NCBI GenBank assembly: GCA_910592345.1
Contig: CAJVPI010000214.1
Span: 1-42,060 of the forward strand
Length of the DNA stretch: 42,060 nt
Direction of reading: 5' to 3'
Source of the DNA: Paraglomus brasilianum
Lineage: Eukaryota
In this document: in pieces, positions 1,396-32,687 of the stretch
How the letters are laid out: every line of letters starts with the position of its first letter
Position numbering within the stretch: position 1 is the first letter of the stretch
Made by a program: the position numbers and the translations under genes
The notes under the pieces: model-generated
Told to the model about the DNA's origin: nothing
The model's input: only the letters and a program-made list of their open reading frames with translations
Databases searched by the model: none

Positions 1396-3565
1396 TTAGT
1401 CCTCCTTAATATCATCAAAGTCTTTCTCCCATTCACCGTCGAGGACTGAAGAAGTTAATTGATAGTCACAACGGATGGATTAGTAAATAAATACTACTTT
1501 ATCGTTGTCCGCTTCTCAACCCTCCCCTCTTTTCGGGAACATACCAGAATCATTCAGGTCGTTACCATCAGCAGGAGCAAGAGCGGCTGTAGATTCCGCA
1601 AGTGCTTCTTTAATCTTTTCGCCGACAACAGACATGGACATATGGTCTTTAGTTTCAAATTTAGGGGTCTCTGAACCGTGATCCTGTTCAGTTTGGATTG
1701 GCGGTGGCAGATTTTGAATAACGAGTGAATCTTGTTGAAAGACTTCAGATGGTTTGTCTTCAGAGGTTAGGAATGATGGCATCACGCTGCTATCGTCTTT
1801 TTTCTCCTCTGGTTGCCTCGTCTGTTCCAATTGCCCTTTCGCTTCATCCATATCCACATCCTTCTTTGCCGTATCTTCTTTTACCACTCCTTTTGTTGCA
1901 TTCTCTTGTTCATTTACCGTCTCCGCTTCCAATTTCTTCACCTCGACTATTACAACCTTTCGCTCACCCAATTCAATATCTTCGCTCCTATCCTTCTGGT
2001 CCTTTTTCCTCCGGCTTCCTATGCTACTCCTTTTCTCTTCCTCCGTGATATTGCTTGACGGTACCATTTTATCATGCTCTATTCTATTTCCTGGCACCAG
2101 TCGTCCGGTTGCAGTAATGGCCTCTTCGCGATAATTGCTTGGAGGGGAATACGGTCTTATGGAGTCAACATTTGTTTGGAAGAGCAAGTCGGCGTTCTGT
2201 GAGCTTTGAGTCGGAACTGGATGTTTGTACAAAGATTGGAGATGAGCACAATGTAGTGTCAACCATTTGATGTCAAAAGCAAACAAAACACTAACACTTA
2301 CGTTTGAGTACTGTATCATTTAACCATTTCCATACTTCAACCAAATGTTGGTTTTCACACAAAGTCTGGAATTTGGTTATCGCATCGTAATGTATTAACG
2401 GCGGAATCAACAGCAATGAATTTACTGTAACAGCGAAAGGATAATTGAACAAATTAATGACAGAATTTTGATAGGCTCAGACAGCACAAAGAGGTAAAAG
2501 CGGTTTCCAATCACGTGAACCAAAACATACCAATGAGGACAGCTTGTTTCATGGGCGACATTAGCTTTCCGAGAAGTGCAAGGAGGAAACATGTATTGAG
2601 CACAACTGCCAAATACTACAAAGTGGCCAACAGTTAATACTTTTCAATACGAACTACGATGGCAACACGATCTGCTCTTCGTCTCAGACATTACTGGGCT
2701 CCATTCTTTACGGGTTTAGTCGATTGGTCACCGTTTATTCAAATATACTTTTGCAAACTTACCAATCGTGGATTATCCTTGCGGAATTTTGATACAGAAT
2801 CACGCAACCATTGTATACGGATCTTGAGCCTATTGCATATTTCGGAGTATTTGACCGGTGTGGGCTGAGCACTGTAATTTATCGTTGATAAACGAACAAG
2901 GAATGGGTTGACAGCAGGTGAGAAGTAATGTTTTGAATTCGGTTGAGAAAAATTCCAAGATATGATTTCACATTCTCACTTACAATTCTTTCTCAAGTCT
3001 GTTGTGTAGTGGCTGTAATATACTCTATATAATAAATGATTAAATCACGACTACGATTAGAAGCCACAACCCAAAGCTGAAATGCGCACATCTTCCTTTA
3101 TCATCATATTATTCTCATTCACACTCGTACCTTTGATGCATCCTTTAAGTTGGTATTGGTATTACTATGGACAAGTATTTCTGAGAGCAACACATACAGA
3201 CCAGTTCCTGATGCTACCAACGTGAGGAGCGGTATGTATGGGTTGGTAAAGACCCTGTGAGGTGTAGTAATGGACGAGATAAGTAAGGGAAGTAGCGTTT
3301 ATGCACGAGAAAGTGACAAGAATCGGATGTATGCGCTACATTATGCATTTAAGTCTTCGTTTCTCACAGCAATTCACTCCTTTCGCTACCCATATATATA
3401 TGTATGTATGAATGAGTATACTTGCCAAACGGTAGCGTTAAGTCCGAGTACGACCACACACCATAATGTTGGTCTCTTGAGTATGAGAGTGGCATATGCG
3501 ATCTCGACCGTTTCCTCGTACTTGTCGAAGTGGAGCTGTAACTTGTTTATTCCTTGCGCTGACAT
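1396..3565 (-). CDS. Reticulon-homology (RETREG/FAM134/ARL6IP1-like) ER membrane protein with acidic disordered tail and C-terminal LIR/AIM-like motif; 447 aa, 8 exons
   Basis: Exons 3565-3426, 3254-3131, 3024-2984, 2871-2763, 2615-2531, 2424-2302, 2216-1545 and 1445-1396 join in frame (1344 nt). Introns are GT-AG except intron 1 (GC-AG). Two hydrophobic segments flank 'KYSEICNRLKIRIQWLRDSVSKFRKDNPRL'. 'VNSLLLIPPLIHYDAI' resembles ARL6IP1 'VTSLLLLPGLNQHGII'. The protein ends 'DGEWEKDFDDIKED*'. Confidence 0.8.
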
Positions 3566-5086
3566 AGTGAAGTAGAGTGTAGACAAACTGTAGCGTGAAG
3601 CGTCTGTGCAGTAAAGCTGGAACTATTGATAGTAACGGACTGAGTAGATAGTAAACTTCTGGTTATGGTATTACTCGTAATAAAACTCTCTCGATACGTG
3701 AAGCAATCTTTTTTCCCTTGTCATGATAAGCAAGTTTTATTAGATGCTTAAGTATGCGGCGGGAGATTCATGGTCACGGGAACCGTAGTTTATTTCACGC
3801 AGTGGTGGTGGCACATGGCGCATGTATAGATGAGAGGTATTTATCCTGTGTGCAGACATTACGTGAATGTTGTGTGGTACGCCAGGTGTCATGGGGAAAG
3901 ATGGTATAATTGATTAGATGAATAATAACGTTGTATTTGTTGCGTTCAAAACGATTGACGAGAGAGATTATCGTTATGAACAATCTACTGTGTAACCATG
4001 GATTAATGCAATTGTATAATATTATTTTCAGGGGTTCATATCATTCAAAACTTCCCAATAATTAATAATGGATCAACGTTTGTAATTCGGTCACATGCTT
4101 TCCTTGTTCGCTTTGAAAAGAGATGATTTATTTAATCGAACATTGTCTGATGCTAAAAAGCAATTCCTAGCAAGGGACGTCCTAATTTACCGAATCCTTT
4201 CCGTCATATATTTTGACCTTCCCACTTCTTGAGAAAAATAATAACAGGGAGACATTTCCTTTAGAGATTTACATCTCAGACCGGATAGATGTCTGAACGC
4301 AGAACATTTGTCTCTCGTTGTTCAGAAAACTATAGATATCCCTTCTTCAATTATAGACTCTGATTTGCACGCATCGGTTGCCCCACTCCTGCAGTGAGTG
4401 TAATAAATGAGAAGTTATTATTGTTGGATATTTCGGCGACATTCCAAGCCACTTACACAAAAATAAGCGGTATATATCAATGGTGAACTTTTTTGTTTCA
4501 GGATAGTGGTAAAGTTATTCTTTCTAACATTGTAAACGGCAGGTCATCTACAATGTATGATCCACCATAGTAATAGCAAAGTAGACTTTTCGAAAGCTGA
4601 AACAGAATCAATTCGGATTGCCTGCACATTTGTTTATTGCTTCAAAAATTTCTGTGCCTATGATAAATAATGATTGGGATCTGCTAAGTTACGTGTTCTG
4701 CTAGCTTCAAGAAACTCATGGATAGGCTTTCTTTACCATTGTGCCAAAAGTCGAAGATTAGAAAGAACTAGTATACATATGTTAATCAAGCATATGGAAA
4801 AACTAAACCGTCATCAATTTTTTGATGCTCGGAACCCCTGAAATCTTCCGTAACACTCTCAAGTCAATTTATCTACCTACCTATTGTGTTCTACATATAG
4901 ATGATGACGCATTCTGATCTACAGATATTCGTCAGCACCAAAGGAGATCGACGCAAGTCATGTGAAATTCTCAAAACACGCATACCACCATTTTAACAAG
5001 ACTAAAATACCAATATACAATTTTATTCCCCACTCTATATAATACATCCTACATACATATCACCTATTTATTACATACACAGGTAT

Positions 5087-8000
5087 TCAAATAAAGTTAT
5101 TTATCCTATATATGAGCATAGCAAATCTCTTCAGACTAGGGTGCGAAGTATCTTCAGCTAATTGTCGATAGTATGTATCTTCAAGACGTTGTCTAACCGG
5201 GGGGATGATCCGGGGAAGGTGTTCTCGAATTGAGGCGTCCTATAATAACAAGTATCGTTATAATGGGAATAGTTAATATAAGCAACCTTCAAACAAGTTT
5301 CCAACGAATGCTTCTCTACTCACCTTAATATCTAAATGAGCAACTGCCTCTTCCAACCATAACAATTTCAATTCAAATAGCTTATCCAATTCGTTCGATA
5401 GATGGTGAATCAGTGAGAGTACGACAAGCTGCGACACACTTGTCCTACCGTCTTCATGAAAAATAGTCTTCTGATCCAGTTTACTAATTAAGCGGAGTAT
5501 TGTTGTCGCGTCGTTGGATGATAGGGCCTGTTGGAAATTTTGACAAAATTTTTTAATGAATGATGTACGCTGATATTTGGCATTTGCTTAGTTTGTATAA
5601 TTGGGTATGAGAAGTACACACACATATATACGCGCGTGCTGTGTGTATATATGTACGCTTCCTTCTCCCAACCTCAAAAACCAAGCCCTAAAACGAACCT
5701 TAACAAAAGCCTCTTCAAAATTCCCCACTTCCAAATACCTATCAATCATATTCCTCAATTCAACTACTCCAGGGGCTTCCATAGGAGACGTATACGTCCG
5801 CTGCACACTTGGGTGACGCTGATGTGTCTGCTGACGGTGATGCACAATAGTATGTTCCGCTTGAGAAGGCAATGCTTGACGAGTAATTAGAGAAGTGTTC
5901 GATGTATTAAATGTGGCAGTCGATTGGGGAATTATAGATGTGGTAGGTTGTGGAATGGTGGTCGTTGTAGATAGTGGGATGGTCGCCGTAGATGGCATGG
6001 ATGACATGGTTGGCATGGTTGCTGTGGCCATCGGCGTAGCCGCGGTGGGGAGCGAAATAGGCACGTTATTGACAGGTGTACCTGCTCCTATGGATGCCAT
6101 TATACCAGTAGATTGAAGAGCTATCGACCGATCGACCGATCGTTTGGTTGGCATGAATCATATATATGAATTTTGTAACGAGATAATCGGCAGAGCAATG
6201 GCGGGTATTGGTAAAAAATAAAGTAGCGGATATTAGGAAAAAAGTCATCATGCAATAAGCAAACGGAGTTGTCTATTTACCCCATACATTATTTTTGTAC
6301 CACGCACGCCCACACAAACCCTGCTCACTCATCCCTTATTCACTTACCACCATTCCCAACTCCCTTATTTCCCATTTCATATCCATCCTGCGCACTCATC
6401 CGTCCCAATCGTGGAGTTGTTTGAGGAATGAGCATACGCTTCAATTCTCCCGATAAAGATCGAGCCAGCTTGTGTTGAACCTCGGCTGTAGCGTGTGACG
6501 AATGCGTCTCGGGCATGTGAGAAGGGAGATGAGTTGTGGTGGCAGTGGCGGTGGTGGCAAGAGGCTGTGGGTGGATGCTCGAGGGCAGCTGTTGCTGAGG
6601 CAGTTCTGGCTGTCGTTGCTGTTGCATTCCTTTTATTATATTAATCAATTCCACCTGAGTTTGCTGCATGTCTCTTATAGACCTTTCTAATTGTTCTAAC
6701 CTTCCGTGAATTCCCTTCTCACCCGCTCCCATCGAGGTCAAACTTTTCTCACTCCTTTCTGCAACATGTTGCAAACCCTCTTCTACTGTTTGATTTATTT
6801 GCAAGAACATTACAGCCGTAGCTTCCTGGAGTTGAGGGACAAGAATGCCAGTAAACGATTGTTTGAATATTTCGTCAACGGTTGGCCGCATTGCTTTGGA
6901 CACGCCTTTGGCAATCGATTCAATCACAGCCGGTTTGGAGAGAACTTTGGAAACATTTTCGGATACAGCCCGCTCGATTGCGACTGGGATCGACTTTTAA
7001 GATAGTGGAAAAAAGTAAATTGTAAGTGAATTGTTGCATATTTGTACGATGATACCACGATCTACGTTGTTATTCAACCATATTATAAATTATTATACAT
7101 CTACCTTACTTATAGCCTCAGGTAACGCCTGCTTTACTTTATTATCAACTGCATTGGTTAGCGTCCTAGTCAATGCTGGCACAAGCATAGTCTGCACTTC
7201 CTGTCTTATTGTCTGGGTCATTAACTGAGAAGTATTATTATTCAACGTATCGGAAACAACCTTCAGAATTGACTGTTGTCGAGATGTCTCAAGAGCTTGA
7301 TGCTGTATACGATCGGATTTTAGTTCTTGTGCTTAGAAAGGTGGGGAAGAATAAGGTCGAGTTAAGATGTGAAAAAGAAGTTAACATAAAAGGGCGACAA
7401 GGAATAAAAAATACATATGCACTTACATTGCTTATCCATTTCTTTAATGAACACCTTTTGCACTTTATTAACAATATTTTCTTCTAGTTTTCTAAACTCC
7501 TTGGAAGTGTTTCCGTCTATAACATCCAATTCATACTGTTAGCATAAAGTGTAGACAGTCAGAGATAATAGCAAATGTTCCCATTCACAGTACCTGCTTT
7601 GTGGTTAGAGTTTTCTTGTTGAGCCTGCGCTTCTGCCTTGCGTGATTTCTCATTCGCATTCGATGATTTACCATTGGCTTTTTGTAAATCTGCGGGTTTT
7701 TTATTCTTCTGTGATGGTTCTTGATGTGCATCGTTATTTGAGTCTTTATCCTTCTCCTTATCTTTATCTTTCTCTCTATGTCGATCCTTGCGCCTCGCGG
7801 GTCTTTCAGAATCCGACACTATTTCTCCCGTCCCTGCAGCAGCTAAAGCTCGTTCTTTTTCAGCCTTTTTCTTCTCCTTTAATCTTGCAATAGTACCGTT
7901 AACAACAGGACCAGACAATTTAATGTTGCCAGTTGAGGCGGCTTTTTGATTTTCTTTTTTATCTTCTTCGTCTGCTGGTTGTAATTCGGAAGTCGCTCGG

Positions 8001-11000
8001 ACTATTGAAGAATGAGATTCTGTACTGGTTGATGTTGAGGCAATTGCAGAAGTCGTAGCTGAAGTAGACACAGAGGGATGAGGTGGATGCAGAGAGGACT
8101 GGTCGTGAGTAGCCGTTACTGGTGGTGCGTTTAATGGTTGTTTGATTGGCTGCGGTAGAGTAATCTCCGTACTTGTATTTATAGCTTTGGTTTGGTTTCC
8201 TGTAGTCACGCTCAGCTCTTTATCTTCCCCTTCTATCTCTGCCGTTTTAACTTTCGGTTCTGATCCTTCGGCTGAAATGACTTCTGTAGCTCCTTTGTCT
8301 GACCTATCATCAGTCTTCTTCTGCATGAATATGCTTGGTTCGCACTTAAATTCAGGACATCTTTCAAGGTTGTTTGGGTACAACATTTCTGAGTATAGCA
8401 GATATTGTTGTACAACATCTGTCTGAATGCAGTAGATACTGAAACCATCTGATTCCGGGACGTTTACAAAGCTGATTATGAATTGATCAACCGGGAACTC
8501 AATTATGTAATCGAACTAAACGAGTCATTAAATAGGGTTAGTAAAGTCACAGCTACCCAACACTGTTGAAAACAATTCGCGTCGTTGCGAACAAAATAAG
8601 AAGCTTATGGACATTGATAATGATATCCAACCTTTTTCCTTCCTGTATCCAAGTGCACAGCAAATATAGACATTCTAACACTATTCCCTACTATCAAACA
8701 CCGACTTTTCTGTTCAAACGCGACACAATTGAACATCTTTCTTTCATTAGTTAATGTCTTTCCACCGTGTCCATCTCCTGTCTCTTCTTTCGGAGGTATA
8801 TATTTAATCTCCTGGATAGCACTCTCCATTGTCGCATCGTATAACCTCAATAAACTATTCCTGTTAGCACCAATAACAACGTATTCAAATGCCGATGATT
8901 TGTTGAATAAAGGCAGGCCTTCTTCTTGAAGGTCAACGAAAAGGATCGAGGATGGTCTTTCACCATGAAGGTTTATACTGTGTACGACAACAGCCTCGTG
9001 AGGATTTGACGTGAGTTGTTGGACATCAAAAAATTTGACATAGTGACCACTGGCGGTTGCAAGAATTGTGCCATCAGATGAGAATGCCAGGTCTTCGACT
9101 GGCTTTTTTTTTTCGATACAATAGTTTAGATAAGAATATGTCAAATTACATTATGCTGAAACGAGTTGAATATGAGTCTTACCTCGTCATATTTCTCCGT
9201 CTTGGCGATACTTGACCATATTTCTTCCTCCTTATGATTCACACTATCTTTGCCCTCAGACACCTTTGCTACATCAATTACTCCAACTTCATTAGTATCA
9301 GTAGCAACTGCAAATACAGTTCGCTTGGGATGCCAAACAGCTCTCGTATATCTTGGCGGCGTCGGTTCGGACATTATAGTCTTTGCGTCTAATTCAAAGA
9401 CAATTTTGCACGGAATTTCCTCATCGGCTGCCTGCGGCGGCTCTGAGATTTCCCAAATAGTAATTGTACTAACGTCGCCGATGGCAAGAAGAAAGTGACA
9501 GTTATTGTGGCTAGAATATTGGAGGCATACGTCAATTATTTGCGTGCCTTGGAGTCGAACGAGCGCCCTGCTTCCATATTGGATGCTTATTATACGGACT
9601 TTACCTCCTGTCATATTAAAAGGTTATAAGTAAATGTTGAGGAGTAAGGTCAAGTTCACGCAGTATTAAAAATTATAGAACTAATACTAAATAATGAAGG
9701 CTAATACATAATAACAACTAGTGGCAAATGCGACAATCATTATGCCATCGAGAGAAAATAAACCAATTTGGCATTGCGTTTCACTAATACCAACCTTTGA
9801 CTGCGTAGCATATAAAATGATCATTTGCAGCAATCAATTTCGATGTTCGATATTCAGTATCACTTATAACCCTTGTAATCGTGGTAAGTTCCAAATCTCT
9901 CGTTGATATCATTGACTCGTTCTGTTGCGACAGGTCAATTACAATATCACTCGAAGGAAGCCTCATTCCATCAGGAATATCTCTCGATAAATTCTTCCTA
10001 GTCATAGAAGCCCGTATATTCCACGCAGTAGTATCTGGTAACGAAGGCTTCATATACGGATAGTCCATAATTGTTTTTTCTCCCACAATTGTTGTTCCTT
10101 CAAAGGACGCCTTCGGTTTTTGCCCCACCGATTGTCCTTCAGTCTTCACACTGGTACTCCTATCCATACCTCCATCCGCTTTCTGACTTTGTCCATGAAC
10201 ACTTCCACCACCTTTACTCCTTGCAGTCGTTGTCGGGTTAGTTTTTTTGAACAAATCAAACGGATTTTGATATGTAAAAAGCGAACTAGCACCAGATAAT
10301 GAGCTTGCTTTGGTCGTTGGTGGTGAAGTGGAAGCAGGCGGTATTGATTCGAGACTAGTAAGTTTGTTGTAGTCAACTACTTCTACTGGGGATGTAAGAG
10401 AGTCGTCACTTAACACTGCGTCGGGTGTGGGTTCTTCGGCAATTGCGATGGGGTCAGTAGCGGCGTCGATAGTAGGAGTAGTATACATTAATGCGGATGC
10501 AGATGTGGACGCGAATGTAGATGAAGATGCGAATGTAGATGAAGATGAAGATGCAAGCGCGTGCGCGGAAACAGATTTTGATGTGAATTTTGGATAATCT
10601 AAATTGTGAACGTCTTCTACACGCGTTTGAGTAGTTTCACTGTCACTATAAAATAGGGATGCAAGTCAGGAGATGATTGCAGACAATAATGCAAGAATGA
10701 ATAAGATAAAAGAATTGACTTACGTTCCCTCATCCTTCTTCTCATTCTCCATCTCCATCCTTTGTGGTCCAAATAAAGCCAATTTCAGAGATTCTGTCGA
10801 GGCTCTATCGATATTCAATGTCGGATCAGCTCTAAGCGCTAGTGGTGGTGGATATGGAGGTGATCCTGGCTCTTGGGGAGTGCCACTTGATGATGTCATT
10901 GTAACAGATGTCGTTGATGACGTTGAATTTGCTGAGAAAGAGTTTTGTAGAAACGCCAATGGATTTATGATATTAAGAAGATTAGATTGGTTAGGGGCGT

Positions 11001-20376: not shown

Positions 20377-21035
20377 TATTACACCCATTCCAATAACTTT
20401 CTCTCTTTATATTCACTGTCCGTTCTAACGCCTGTCTGTTTGTGGATATATTATTATTGGAATCCAACTAGAGTCCATAAAGTCCACTCGGCCCTCACTG
20501 CTGTCGATATTATACGACAGATACCTACACACACACTCTTTTTTGTATCTTCGGCATATCTCAAGTCATTTACTTTGCGACCTAGCAAACACGTCATTCC
20601 TACGAATAGAAGAGATAATAATACGGATAATAAGAATAAGTAATAGGAATCTTAGAAGTACTCCGACAAGTACGCTCACTGTCAACTAACTAGAAAGTGC
20701 CATCTGTACTGCTCCACATACCAACTGTCCCTTCGGTACATATCTTTTTCACATGTGTATATAGTTATTTCTCTGCCATCTTTTATTTGCCTTCAAAATA
20801 CCTGTTTCATTGATAATATAATCTGACCCTCATTTCCTTAAATAACTCTGTTCTATAAAACGATCTCCTATATTCCACACATGTTCAATACTTACTCTCT
20901 AATCTACCATCACTCAATTTTAGATTCACTCCTCAAAAGCCTTCCGAGTGCCTTTTTTAAAGTTTTCTGCGAAAACAACGACTACTCCCCGTTCATTTAA
21001 TACCATATTATTACGTTGTTACCGCTGTTACGCCA

Positions 21036-23291
21036 ATGTACTCCCAACGAAACCACTCTGAAAGTCTTCTCACTCAGCCATTTCATCCTCCGGCTGAGGA
21101 CCAGCTTGTCGACCAGGGGTTTATACAAGACCAACTGCAACAACAGCCGCCTTATAGCCAAGAGCAATTGGACGATATCAATTTCAACACGTCCCAGCTA
21201 ATGCTCTCTTCCAATGCCTTTGCTCTACAGTCATTGGATGGTAGTATGCCGCAGAGCGCTCTACCTGCTGAATGGCCACTTTACTCGGACGCATTAACTG
21301 GAATGGCTGATGTCAATGTTTATGATAGCGACTTGATGACTGATAATCCAATGATCGGCGACCCAGCCTGGCAGCTCATATCATCGCAACAGGCCTCTCA
21401 GCTCGCCGAATCGCCAGCTCAATCTCTTTCCAACAATGCGAACATGATCGTCAATGACCAACTACCTCGAGCTCAGACCCCAGGTCCGCATCCCAGGATG
21501 AACGCACCCCATTACTTGCACATGCGTCGTCGCAGTCTTTCAGCAGACAACATACATGCGCTGGCAAAATACCAGGCGACTCAGAGAAAGACCGTATTTG
21601 GGAATCAACAACAATCGGCATGCCAATTTGATCGTTCTCAGTTTGCACGGACTCAAACTGTAACCGAAGTTATTGAGACTGAGGATCAATTACAATCTCA
21701 TGGCATAAAATTGGAACCGCAAGCTGCCTTTCAACATGCTTCAGGCAATATGATCATCGATCCTCAGGTTACCAGCAATGGCAATTGTCAAGTTAACGAT
21801 AACGAACAGCAGCATTCATCTTCATCAAACCCTTCCACACCAGACGGCGAGCAAATCAAACACGCCCAAAAGCAGTCAGAATTTACAGCTAGGTTTAAAA
21901 TCAGATTGGATAAGAAGCCTCAGAGAATGCCTAATATTCATGCAAACCCAAACATCCTTTCCGCTACTACTCAATCAAAGATTACCATGTTGCCAGGTGT
22001 CATCAGCGCTCTATCCAGTGGAATGGAATTGGGATCTTCCATTTCTACTCCAAGTACTCCAACATTCTCACCTGATAACGGATCTCATGTAGACAACAAA
22101 CCGTCTGCTCCTCCTCGGCGTGGTCATACACGCAAGAGATCTCTCTCTGCGCCACAAGCGTTCAATCCCCAGGGGATATCCGGTGCTATGCCTCTTCAAA
22201 CTGTCCAGCCGTTCCCATTTAATGTCCCACAAACTCCTCGTAGACTCAATGCCCTGCCTATTCAAATCTCAAGGAGCCATAAACATAGTTACAACAGTAC
22301 ACCAATGTCGTCGGAAGAATATCAGAGAAAATTGGACGAAGAGTTGGAAAAGGTCGACTTTGAGGATATTACTGTAAGCGAATTGAAAGACATGTTACGT
22401 CAAAGGGGTAAACCCGCAACTGGAAAGAAGGCAGTTTTGATGCAAAGGTTGCAAGAAGAAATGACTCATCTGAAGGCTAAACAAATCCAACAGCAACAGA
22501 ATAAACAGAATCCACAGAATCCACAGAATCTGCAGCAGCAAACAGTCAAGCCTAAACCCCAACAGCTCGGGAACACTGGTAACATCAGCTTGACGAGTGG
22601 TCAATTCGGTCAAATGATTTCGTCCCCAACATCGCCATCTGGCATATCACTTCAGCATAGCCTGGGTAATCTCCATATTTCTAGCCCGCCCGCTCATTCT
22701 CGACGCTACAGCCCATACACTAGTGTTAGCATTCCCAATAGTCCTAGGATGCATCCGAACAGATCGTCTGCCGGATTCAACGGTGGAAGTTTCCCATTTG
22801 GAGCTAATGAAGACTGGCAGTTCAGTAACGCTGCTATTCCCAGTCCCGGCTTTGTAGGTCAAGCAAGTACGCCAATGGATGAACATGTTTTTATGCTTAT
22901 GATGGACAATCAACAGACATCGCCCCAGCAAGACTATTTTGGTCCACAAGAGCCATCCTCCGCTCCAGCTACTACCACAGAATTTGCCTATCAAACTCCA
23001 TCTTCAGCACCTGCCACTACTACGGAATTTGAAGGATTCCAACAGTCTGCGCAACCCGCACAAGCTGTCAACAGAGAATTCGTTAATCCTTTGTATGTGA
23101 ATATGGACGTGCCTATGGGTATGATGGGTGTTAATTATAATGGGGGAATGACTCAGGATGCTGATCAACCCCCAGCTTCGACCAATGCGATGAATGGAGT
23201 CTTGGCCTCTCAGGCGGGTTTGGGATTTGCGTTTGACCAGCAGCAAGCTATGTTGATGAAACCAGATGAGTCTTGGAATGCTTGGCCATAA
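21036..23291 (+). CDS. Intronless 751-aa SAP-domain protein, Q/S/P-rich, putative transcriptional co-regulator
   Basis: Long uninterrupted ORF. SAP motif 'FEDITVSELKDMLRQRGKPATGKKAVLMQRLQEE'; the remainder is low complexity. Confidence 0.85.
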   Translation: MYSQRNHSESLLTQPFHPPAEDQLVDQGFIQDQLQQQPPYSQEQLDDINFNTSQLMLSSNAFALQSLDGSMPQSALPAEWPLYSDALTGMADVNVYDSDLMTDNPMIGDPAWQLISSQQASQLAESPAQSLSNNANMIVNDQLPRAQTPGPHPRMNAPHYLHMRRRSLSADNIHALAKYQATQRKTVFGNQQQSACQFDRSQFARTQTVTEVIETEDQLQSHGIKLEPQAAFQHASGNMIIDPQVTSNGNCQVNDNEQQHSSSSNPSTPDGEQIKHAQKQSEFTARFKIRLDKKPQRMPNIHANPNILSATTQSKITMLPGVISALSSGMELGSSISTPSTPTFSPDNGSHVDNKPSAPPRRGHTRKRSLSAPQAFNPQGISGAMPLQTVQPFPFNVPQTPRRLNALPIQISRSHKHSYNSTPMSSEEYQRKLDEELEKVDFEDITVSELKDMLRQRGKPATGKKAVLMQRLQEEMTHLKAKQIQQQQNKQNPQNPQNLQQQTVKPKPQQLGNTGNISLTSGQFGQMISSPTSPSGISLQHSLGNLHISSPPAHSRRYSPYTSVSIPNSPRMHPNRSSAGFNGGSFPFGANEDWQFSNAAIPSPGFVGQASTPMDEHVFMLMMDNQQTSPQQDYFGPQEPSSAPATTTEFAYQTPSSAPATTTEFEGFQQSAQPAQAVNREFVNPLYVNMDVPMGMMGVNYNGGMTQDADQPPASTNAMNGVLASQAGLGFAFDQQQAMLMKPDESWNAWP

Positions 23292-26957: not shown

Positions 26958-27083
26958 TTTGAATGAAAGAGTTGTTGAAAAAGTTAATAGTGTAATTGTG
27001 AAAACCGAAACTTCAGATAATCACGTGTCACATTCAATACTTCGTACTCATCAAACCAACTCTCGTCATCTTCAAAAAAAAAA
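26958..27083. promoter_or_regulatory. 126-bp bidirectional promoter with central TCACGTG E-box
   Basis: Divergent ATGs at 26957 (-) and 27084 (+). TCACGTG at 27021-27027. Confidence 0.55.
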
Positions 27084-27759
27084 ATGTCAACCTCTCGCGC
27101 CGTTGCAGCTCTCGACTGGACAAAGCTCACTGTCTCCCTGGGTTTACAGAAAGAGACAGTTGCTGCTTTGATTGCTTTTCGTAAGCGTAACGAAGAAGCA
27201 AAGAGAGTTGTCACTGCGCTTAAGGAACAAAAGACTGATGTAGATTTCGAGCATTATAGAAAGTTATTGAAGAACTCGGTAATCGTAAATGAAGCAGAAA
27301 AGAATTTGAAGGCGTTCAAGCCAAATAAGGTTGACTTGGCCAAACAGTTAAAAATAATTGACGAATTTGAAGCGAAAGCGGTAAGATTAAACATTATAAA
27401 ATCACGCTCTACGTTAAGTCCATAAATTCATCGTTCAAACGGACAAATTTTTTTTGTAAAGGTTGCTAAAGCCCAAAGAACTGCTTCAAAAGTGGATGCT
27501 GAACTTAATGACCTACAAAAAGCGCTTGTCAACATTGAGCAAGCGCGACCGTTCGAAGATCTCACGGTACGAATCGACGATTACGTCTCATCTTTTGCTA
27601 TATCATAAATTATTTTTATTCATGTATTTTCTCTGTCCTTAGGTTGCCGATGTAGTTGGAGCAAAACCAGAGATTAATGTGGCTCTAGAGAAAATGATGA
27701 AACGAGGCCAATGGGAAGTGCCTGGTTATGAGGAGAAGTTTGGAGGCGGCCCAAGTTAA
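27084..27759 (+). CDS. ATP7: Mitochondrial ATP synthase subunit d; 172 aa, 3 exons
   Basis: Exons 27084-27380, 27462-27566 and 27643-27759. Motifs 'LDWTKL...AFRKRNEEAKR...VDFEHYRKLLKN', 'NIEQARPFEDLTV' and 'GQWEVPGYEEKFG'. Confidence 0.96.
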
Positions 27760-31375: not shown

Positions 31376-31810
31376 CAGTCAAAGCTCGTTATAATAGACA
31401 GTTGGGCATAACCCATGGATGCCATTATAACGCGAGTCCACAATAACGTGCATGATTTGTTATAATGGACTTCTTAATATTGCACGTGTAATTCCATTAT
31501 AGTGCGATTTTTTCCATACTATAAATTCACTTAATAATAAATGTCATCAGAATATTCCTTGTAAGTGAAAGACTTAGTCACAATCTTTATTGCACTCAAC
31601 AAAAATAACAGTTATATCAATCGTTACATGATACATATGTCATGTAGACAACGATATTACAGCAACAAAGCTTATTTATCGATAAAGCTATCCAGCCGTA
31701 GCTTCGTCAGATGGAGCACTTCTCGCCTCTCCATGCTTCGTATATTCACGAAGGTTATATTTCTTCTTGAACTTTGTAATCCACCCGTCGGACGCTTTAA
31801 ACCATTCAAT
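31376..31810 (-). mobile_element. pogo/Tigger-family transposon relic
   Basis: TA|CAGTCAAAGCTCGTTATAA terminus at 31376. Minus-strand 'FKASDGWITKFKKKYNLREYTKHGEARSAP' is the CENP-B-type HTH signature. Confidence 0.8.
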
Positions 31811-31826
31811 ACTGAGAAGCAGGAGA

Positions 31827-31870
31827 GAGAGCAGAATAGAGAGCAGCATAGAGAGCAGCATAGAGAGCAA
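31827..31870. repeat. 12-bp tandem repeat GAGAGCAGCATA, about 3.7 copies
   Basis: Direct reading. Confidence 0.85.
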
Positions 31871-32687
31871 GAGAAAGAAAAGACATGCTAATATAACCCA
31901 TAATGCCAATTTTACCACCGACGGGTATAATGCACGAGTTAGAACTAAGCAAAATATAATTGAGGAGTTAGTTGAGAAATTAAGAGCAGTTAGAATATTA
32001 TAAAAATCAATACCCTGCCAAGACCAAAGAATTAGAACAATATATAGAGCAGGGGGGGTACCATCTAATGCGACGCAGAATGGAGGTGGTGCTAAGGCTA
32101 TCTGGTATATTTGATGCATTGGGTGGTGCTGGTCCATTGAGAGACTCACAGCATCCCTTGAGAGAACTATAATGGAAAGAGACGTGCAATTGAACCAGCG
32201 TGCAGAGAAAATTAGTAAATTTATCGCGTGAGATAAAACTTAACCCGAACGACAAAATCTGTTTATGATTTATTTTTTCACATATACTATCTACGTTTTT
32301 ATTTTATCGATTCCACTAATAAATTTCTATGCTGGACTATTGACAAGCCACTAATGGTCTTGCAAAAAGCTAGGGCTGACAAAATAATTTATATTGCATA
32401 ACATATACGCGTTCGAAGAACTCTTTACTCTTTATACTGTAACAAAATGCTTTCGTCCTATTATAATGTTATTAATACAAACGCCGTTGTTAGGGTGACA
32501 GTTTGGGCTACAAGTGTTGTTTGCTCGTTTACAGGTACATCTTCTGATAGAACAATTTACAGTTATCAGTATGAGCACTTTTATTACCAGTGTTCTGTAA
32601 CCTAATTGCTAGCCGTTAATGAAATTGTTGTTTGCGGAATGTCTGACAGTTCACTATTCCGTGCATCAGATTTCCTGTAAGAGTGTA

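Follow-up and report, generated by a model that had tools for sequence, protein, structure and literature searches.

A candidate ER-phagy receptor with a RETREG/ARL6IP1-type membrane domain in the glomeromycete Paraglomus brasilianum

The window analysed in this work (42,060 nucleotides of the Paraglomus brasilianum genome) contains a minus strand gene located between positions 3565 (ATG) and 1396 (stop). Its eight exons have a total length of 1344 nt and code for a protein of 447 aa, which is probably an ER-phagy receptor working in the manner of FAM134B and Atg40. We estimate the probability of this reading, made by analogy with these proteins, at about 0.68. It is based on the following features: PF24456 is the sole Pfam family matched at E<=1, its membrane segments are spaced as in FAM134B, the tail agrees with the rules described for receptors, and the exon carrying the terminal motif is unchanged in a relative. 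In addition, RETREG clusters are the closest matches of the full-length protein in the ESM Atlas, the motif core has an acidic second residue, and Atg8 is listed among the proteins of arbuscular mycorrhizal (AM) fungi (PMC8401276; papers are cited by PMC number throughout, each for a part of its text). The cited part of that paper mentions neither Atg39, Atg40 nor reticulophagy.

Gene structure and transcripts

The first-pass annotation, made from the sequence alone, had proposed a hand-spliced 447 aa protein with a separate last exon. The eight-exon model (Table 1) likewise gives 447 aa, and joints corresponding to all seven of its introns are present in contigs of RNA, or probably of RNA, from the runs examined (eight out of the 23 listed). 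X5 and X6 are recorded as metatranscriptomes, while the remaining runs (including X1, X2, X8, and X15) are RNA by our guess. The splicing support consists of contigs, none of which spans the whole gene, and unspliced pieces occur as well. Intron 1 (3425-3255) is of the GC-AG type. Contig L002 has introns 1–3 removed, this GC-AG junction included. Intron 7 (1544-1446), located directly in front of the motif exon and singled out earlier for an RNA check, is spliced in five runs out of eight.

Table 1. Features of the gene in the window (joints are given with the supporting runs where specified).
Feature	Position	Strand	Residues and support
Exon 1, ATG	3426..3565	-	aa 1-47; intron 1 joint 3253/3425 (X1, X2, X5, X8); spliced in L002
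Exon 2, second half of hairpin 1	3131..3254	-	aa 47-88; joint 3253/3425; intron 2 joint 3024/3131 (X2, X5, X6)
Exon 3, linker	2984..3024	-	aa 89-102; joint 3024/3131; intron 3 joint 2871/2984 (X5, X6, X8)
Exon 4, linker helix predicted to be amphipathic (aa 121-138; window 2816-2763)	2763..2871	-	aa 102-138; RNA-contig joints
Exon 5, first half of hairpin 2	2531..2615	-	aa 139-166; intron 4 joint 2615/2763 (X2, X8); intron 5 joint 2424/2531 (X8 alone)
Exon 6, remainder of hairpin 2, C-terminal helix predicted to be amphipathic (aa 192-209)	2302..2424	-	aa 167-207; joints
Exon 7, acidic low-hydrophobicity tail	1545..2216	-	aa 208-431; intron 6 joint 2216/2302 (X5, X8); joint 1445/1545
Exon 8, W437 and LIR/AIM-like core F441-D-D-I444 (window 1419-1408)	1396..1445	-	aa 432-447 and stop; intron 7 joint 1445/1545 (X1, X2, X5, X8, X15)
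RETREG1-3/ARL6IP-like reticulon homology domain	2363..3523	-	aa ~15-187, over exons 1-6; PF24456

The protein of this locus is already deposited (P0001, P. brasilianum, 459 aa; retrieved by a search with the tail) and carries an automatic PF24456 tag, so it is the corrected splicing, the motif and the receptor reading that are new. P0001 uses a later donor in intron 1, which adds 12 aa inside the first hairpin compared to the RNA-supported form. This version of intron 1 was ruled out, as the RNA joints back the GC donor; splicing with GT donors only yields stops. The long open reading frame at 1516-2319 covers the tail alone, which bears out the earlier remark that the ORF track misses both the membrane domain and the motif exon. 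Contamination by animal DNA is unlikely, since the contig belongs to the deposited P. brasilianum assembly and the RNA-labelled sources are rhizosphere and soil metatranscriptomes.

If intron 7 is retained (1516-1544), the frame stops after nine further codons, giving an isoform that lacks the LIR-like motif. Unspliced intron 7 pieces (X1 record 1417-1574 and L001) may represent pre-mRNA, antisense RNA or DNA. Three RNA-contig joints (X1/X2) skip 1357-1547, 1766-2100, and 2918-2997 with canonical donors and acceptors on the plus strand, and a matching loose end is present in X7; a random skip would have a canonical plus strand donor and acceptor in 0.9% of cases. These joints, found in contigs that do not show strand, suggest that the gene is crossed by a spliced antisense transcript (its longest ATG ORF being 101 aa), genomic deletions being another possible cause. 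Such a transcript may account for some of the “retained” sense introns.

The neighbours in the window are ordinary eukaryotic genes (14 ORFs scanned). They include a multi-exon Ge1/EDC4-type decapping enhancer with a WD40 region (PF16529; ~5588-10665, minus strand), a Gln/Ser/Pro-rich ORF of 776 codons that encodes a SAP domain (20961-23291, plus strand) and the gene for mitochondrial ATP synthase subunit d (27021-27425, plus strand). A weak match to a Tc5 transposase DNA-binding domain (31688-32239, minus strand; E 5e-4, under the cut-off) is probably a decayed element.

Acidic tail and terminal motif

The acidic tail, earlier put at about 230 aa, comprises 238 residues (210-447) including 54 D/E and 32 K/R, with a net charge of -22. 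By analogy with known receptors, we infer that it is cytosolic and disordered. Receptors of organelle autophagy are described as having a net negative cytosolic tail of 47-250 aa, with the LIR at least 24 aa away from the membrane (PMC12431859). Here, the whole tail follows the last predicted helix (268 aa if counted from the end of hairpin 2), and the LIR-like core is located 262 aa from hairpin 2.

This core, F441-D-D-I444, is the sole [WFY]xx[LIV] match in residues 208-447. It has D at positions -1 and +1, E446 at position +5 and Lys at position -2, and I444 is followed by just three residues. The earlier description of an F-x-x-I core in acidic context within its own last exon holds, and exon 8 is indeed spliced. 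Among 20,000 shuffles of the tail, 79% contained some LIR core and 5.3% a core flanked by acids, while in 0.26% such a flanked core fell among the last 15 residues, the pattern having been set after the motif was seen. By their consensus sequences, FFAT and di-lysine motifs fit the exon 8 terminus poorly.

An acidic second core residue is also found in the LIRs of FAM134B, SEC62, RTN3, and Atg40 (PMC7335187). A helix on the C-terminal side of the LIR is used by the same four proteins (PMC8727931, PMC7335187) and raises the affinity of FAM134B more than 10-fold (PMC8727931), while an acid at position -2 is described as important for binding to GABARAP (PMC7615515). The Lys at this position and the lack of room for a C-terminal helix argue against a strong LIR in the Paraglomus protein. 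Because of this Lys, the terminus is a poor fit to the FIR motif as well (consensus from PMC7615515).

Exon 8 is identical in the relative L001 at 15 out of 15 residues, with two synonymous changes, whereas exon 7 retains 71.6% amino acid identity (166/232 columns). For comparison, identity is 86–88% in exons 5-6 (against L001), 87% in exons 1-4 (against L002) and 65–80% in introns. In this one close comparison, identity at all 15 positions would arise by chance with p ~0.007 at the rate of the tail and 0.12 at the rate of the membrane domain. In run X8, no changes were found in 1349-1445 vs. 16 in 387 nt of exon 7. Conservation of FDDI, suggested earlier as a check, is thus seen to the extent that the motif is unchanged where the tail around it is 72% identical, which favours the receptor reading; that the comparison covers close relatives only counts against it.

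The tail has a single Trp, W437, which is kept in L001 although an F-x-x-I core needs no Trp. The protein may therefore be an ER-shaping protein of the RETREG/ARL6IP1 type in which W437-x3-F441, with acids around it and borne on a long flexible tail, serves as a delta-COP motif, catching COPI vesicles at curved ER like the Dsl1 loop. Motifs of this kind obey a rule for the spacing between W and the next W/F. ELM lists Trp-based motifs placed among acidic residues as binding delta-COP (PMC7145657). However, the overall layout is that of the known ER-phagy receptors, and I444 completes a canonical LIR core. As, to our knowledge, no reticulon-domain protein has a delta-COP-binding role, we consider the COPI function rather unlikely.

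Membrane domain and its relatives

The two-hairpin hydrophobic domain claimed for the N-terminus is visible in the hydropathy profile, the hairpins being located at 32-71 and 138-179. Charged residues are absent from the hydrophobic stretches 32-71, 138-154, and 162-179. Amphipathic character peaks in two windows, 121-138 (hydrophobic moment 0.52, the highest) and 192-209 (0.48). By these computed measures, the protein has two hairpins, a linker of about 60 aa and amphipathic helices flanking hairpin 2. A possible internal repeat between the two helices was not significant (its score was reached in 12.7% of shuffles).

Similarity of the N-terminus to the reticulon family, also claimed earlier, is indicated by profile search. 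PF24456 is the sole Pfam family matched by P0001 at E<=1 (E 1.2e-5, profile positions 35-171 of 184). The score of 25.3 bits is below the gathering cut-off of 27 bits and was obtained for a protein with the 12 aa splice error; this weighs against the receptor reading. L002, which gives the correctly spliced first 138 aa, matches profile positions 2-120 (E 0.001, 19 bits). The two overlapping matches are colinear and together cover positions 2-171 of the profile. Neither the Reticulon nor the REEP family was matched by P0001 at E<=1 in Pfam, and none of the six single exons searched matched a relevant family.

FAM134A/B/C (RETREG2/1/3) have the PF24456 domain near the N-terminus, where the Paraglomus protein has its sub-cut-off match, and a similar total length. 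They share two hairpins of ~40 aa, a linker of ~60–66 aa, two amphipathic helices and a C-terminal tail of ~240 aa bearing an F-type LIR that has an acid in second position. In FAM134B the order is TM12 (92-134), AHL (165-188), TM34 (194-236), and AHC (238-260) (PMC6542808), and the corresponding segments of the Paraglomus protein (32-71, 121-138, 138-179, and 192-209) have the same order and similar spacing. The differences are at the two ends. FAM134B has 80 disordered N-terminal residues, while only 31 residues precede hairpin 1 here (RNA cover ends near 3700). F455 of FAM134B (497 aa) is followed by a helix, whereas the fungal motif ends three residues from the C-terminus and lacks the C-helix. 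Because the C-helix and the long N-terminal tail are absent, we do not file the protein as a FAM134 ortholog, orthology itself being a matter for a tree. The first-pass designation “animal-type ER-phagy receptor” is thus supported in its PF24456 domain, its last-exon splicing and its layout of reticulon domain, acidic tail and terminal LIR-like motif, while an animal-type FAM134/RETREG identity is not established.

Searches of the ESM Atlas point to the same family. With the whole protein, the top matches are chordate RETREG clusters of 441–449 aa (0.90–0.91, 203–210 of 256 features). With residues 1-219, an ARL6IP1-named cluster comes first (0.88), arthropod RETREG/ARL6IP clusters score 0.87 and a reticulon cluster is lower (0.79). 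In both searches, the ten best family-bearing matches all come from one family or clan. A score of 0.9 is also reached by 4–10% of shuffled proteins, which likewise speaks against the receptor reading. Since the results depend on whether the tail is included, orthology is not settled by them. The structure rows of the Atlas all have TM<0.4 by query, and the AlphaFold2 model built on a four-row alignment is unusable (mean pLDDT 35.7). A sequence search of the PDB gave a single match with E 7.1.

The relatives found are close Paraglomus-like sequences only, by searches blind to distant animal or fungal ones. Word-based homolog searches, which miss distant relatives, returned the window's own protein alone, phmmer over 1.84 billion representatives gave three close fragments and no animal match at E<=0.001, and a metagenome scan yielded two loci from 50 candidates. 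Thus no direct match to animal proteins was obtained with homolog searches of close-relative reach. Searches of this kind cannot bridge the divergence that separates the domain from its animal counterparts, and their finding no other fungal members is not evidence that the gene is absent there.

ARL6IP1 resembles the Paraglomus protein in having its domain, of the probable shared family PF24456, near the N-terminus and is its nearest Atlas cluster when the domain alone is used. Although LIRs are predicted in it, ARL6IP1 fails to bind LC3 (PMC10247384), which adds to the points against a receptor. The protein could then be an ARL6IP1-like ER shaper or a co-receptor clustering with the true receptor, its tail being a spacer and F-D-D-I incidental; non-functional LIRs in ARL6IP1 itself and the frequency of LIR cores in shuffled tails would agree with that. 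However, the Atlas clusters that bear the name ARL6IP1 have lengths of only 174 and 238 aa, whereas the fungal protein continues into a long acidic tail with a LIR-like end, and the motif has its own exon, is terminal and acid-flanked (the rarest arrangement among the shuffles) and stays fixed while the tail drifts. A role limited to ER shaping or co-receptor clustering is therefore unlikely in our opinion. ARL6IP1 is described as restricted to metazoa, and to some of them, in a survey of 50 genomes (PMC9804665), where it is scored absent in Allomyces, Batrachochytrium, and Rozella. FAM134 does not appear in the main text of that source; Rhizophagus and Rhizopus are included only in its wider table, the visible query columns of which lack ARL6IP1. 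FAM134C was found in many eukaryotes (PMC8351555), which may bear on the fungal spread of the family.

It is very improbable that the N-terminus is an unrelated or classical-reticulon-derived four-helix membrane domain scoring weakly through its hydrophobicity: the sub-cut-off score, the failure of phmmer to reach animals and the unusable structure model would allow this, but two sequences match PF24456 colinearly and along almost all of its length, other families are not matched at all at E<=1, and the best Atlas matches converge on one family or clan with the reticulon cluster behind.

Proposed function and origin

Functioning as an ER-phagy receptor, the protein would insert its two hairpins and two amphipathic helices into the ER membrane and bend it, while the acidic tail would reach into the cytosol. 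By analogy, Atg8 on the growing autophagosome would take up F441 and I444 in its two pockets. D247 of Atg40 is described as pairing with R67 of Atg8, and D442 and E446 may form pairs with the conserved arginine of Atg8, as D243 and D247 do in Atg40. Atg8-driven clustering would then pack ER into autophagosomes destined for the vacuole.

Atg8-like sequences were also seen on viral contigs (L003-L084), where the Atg8 C-terminal motif is in frame at 61 out of 82 loci. Most of these loci are Atg8-like ORFs of 115–140 aa, many on giant-virus bins. L004:365-1006 matches a solved Atg8 with E 9e-55, and in L004 and L033 about 90 extra residues follow the terminal Gly.

Atg40 and the AIM-bearing REEP1-4 proteins of budding yeasts are likewise fungal membrane-bending proteins with a C-terminal AIM and acids at +1 and +5. 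Atg40 has its origin in REEP1-4 and occurs only in Saccharomycetaceae (PMC10659188), whereas the Paraglomus protein has no REEP match and is predicted to form four RETREG-type membrane helices. It is not Atg40. The known fungal ER-phagy receptors Atg39, Atg40, and Epr1 are not FAM134 homologs. No fungal family member was found in titles and abstracts of the related literature, and no work on FAM134 in Mucoromycota or on RETREG1/ARL6IP1 phylogeny was found either, in searches mostly excluding subscription papers.

We tentatively speculate, with more doubt than confidence, that in this gene a fungal ortholog of the FAM134/ARL6IP1 ancestor has survived, with an ARL6IP1-like reticulon domain already joined to an acidic tail and a terminal Atg8 motif. 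If so, receptor-driven ER-phagy by the FAM134/ARL6IP1 family would predate the split between animals and fungi, ARL6IP1 would have arisen by losing the tail, and yeasts, after loss of the gene, would have recreated its function from REEPs in the form of Atg40.

Overall, the architecture is familiar while the lineage is unexpected. If a glomeromycete has a protein of the RETREG/ARL6IP1 type with a receptor tail, this would move the origin of the family back to the ancestor that animals share with fungi or represent a further independent invention. It would also offer a first way into the selective turnover of ER in AM fungi, one that can be tested in yeast.
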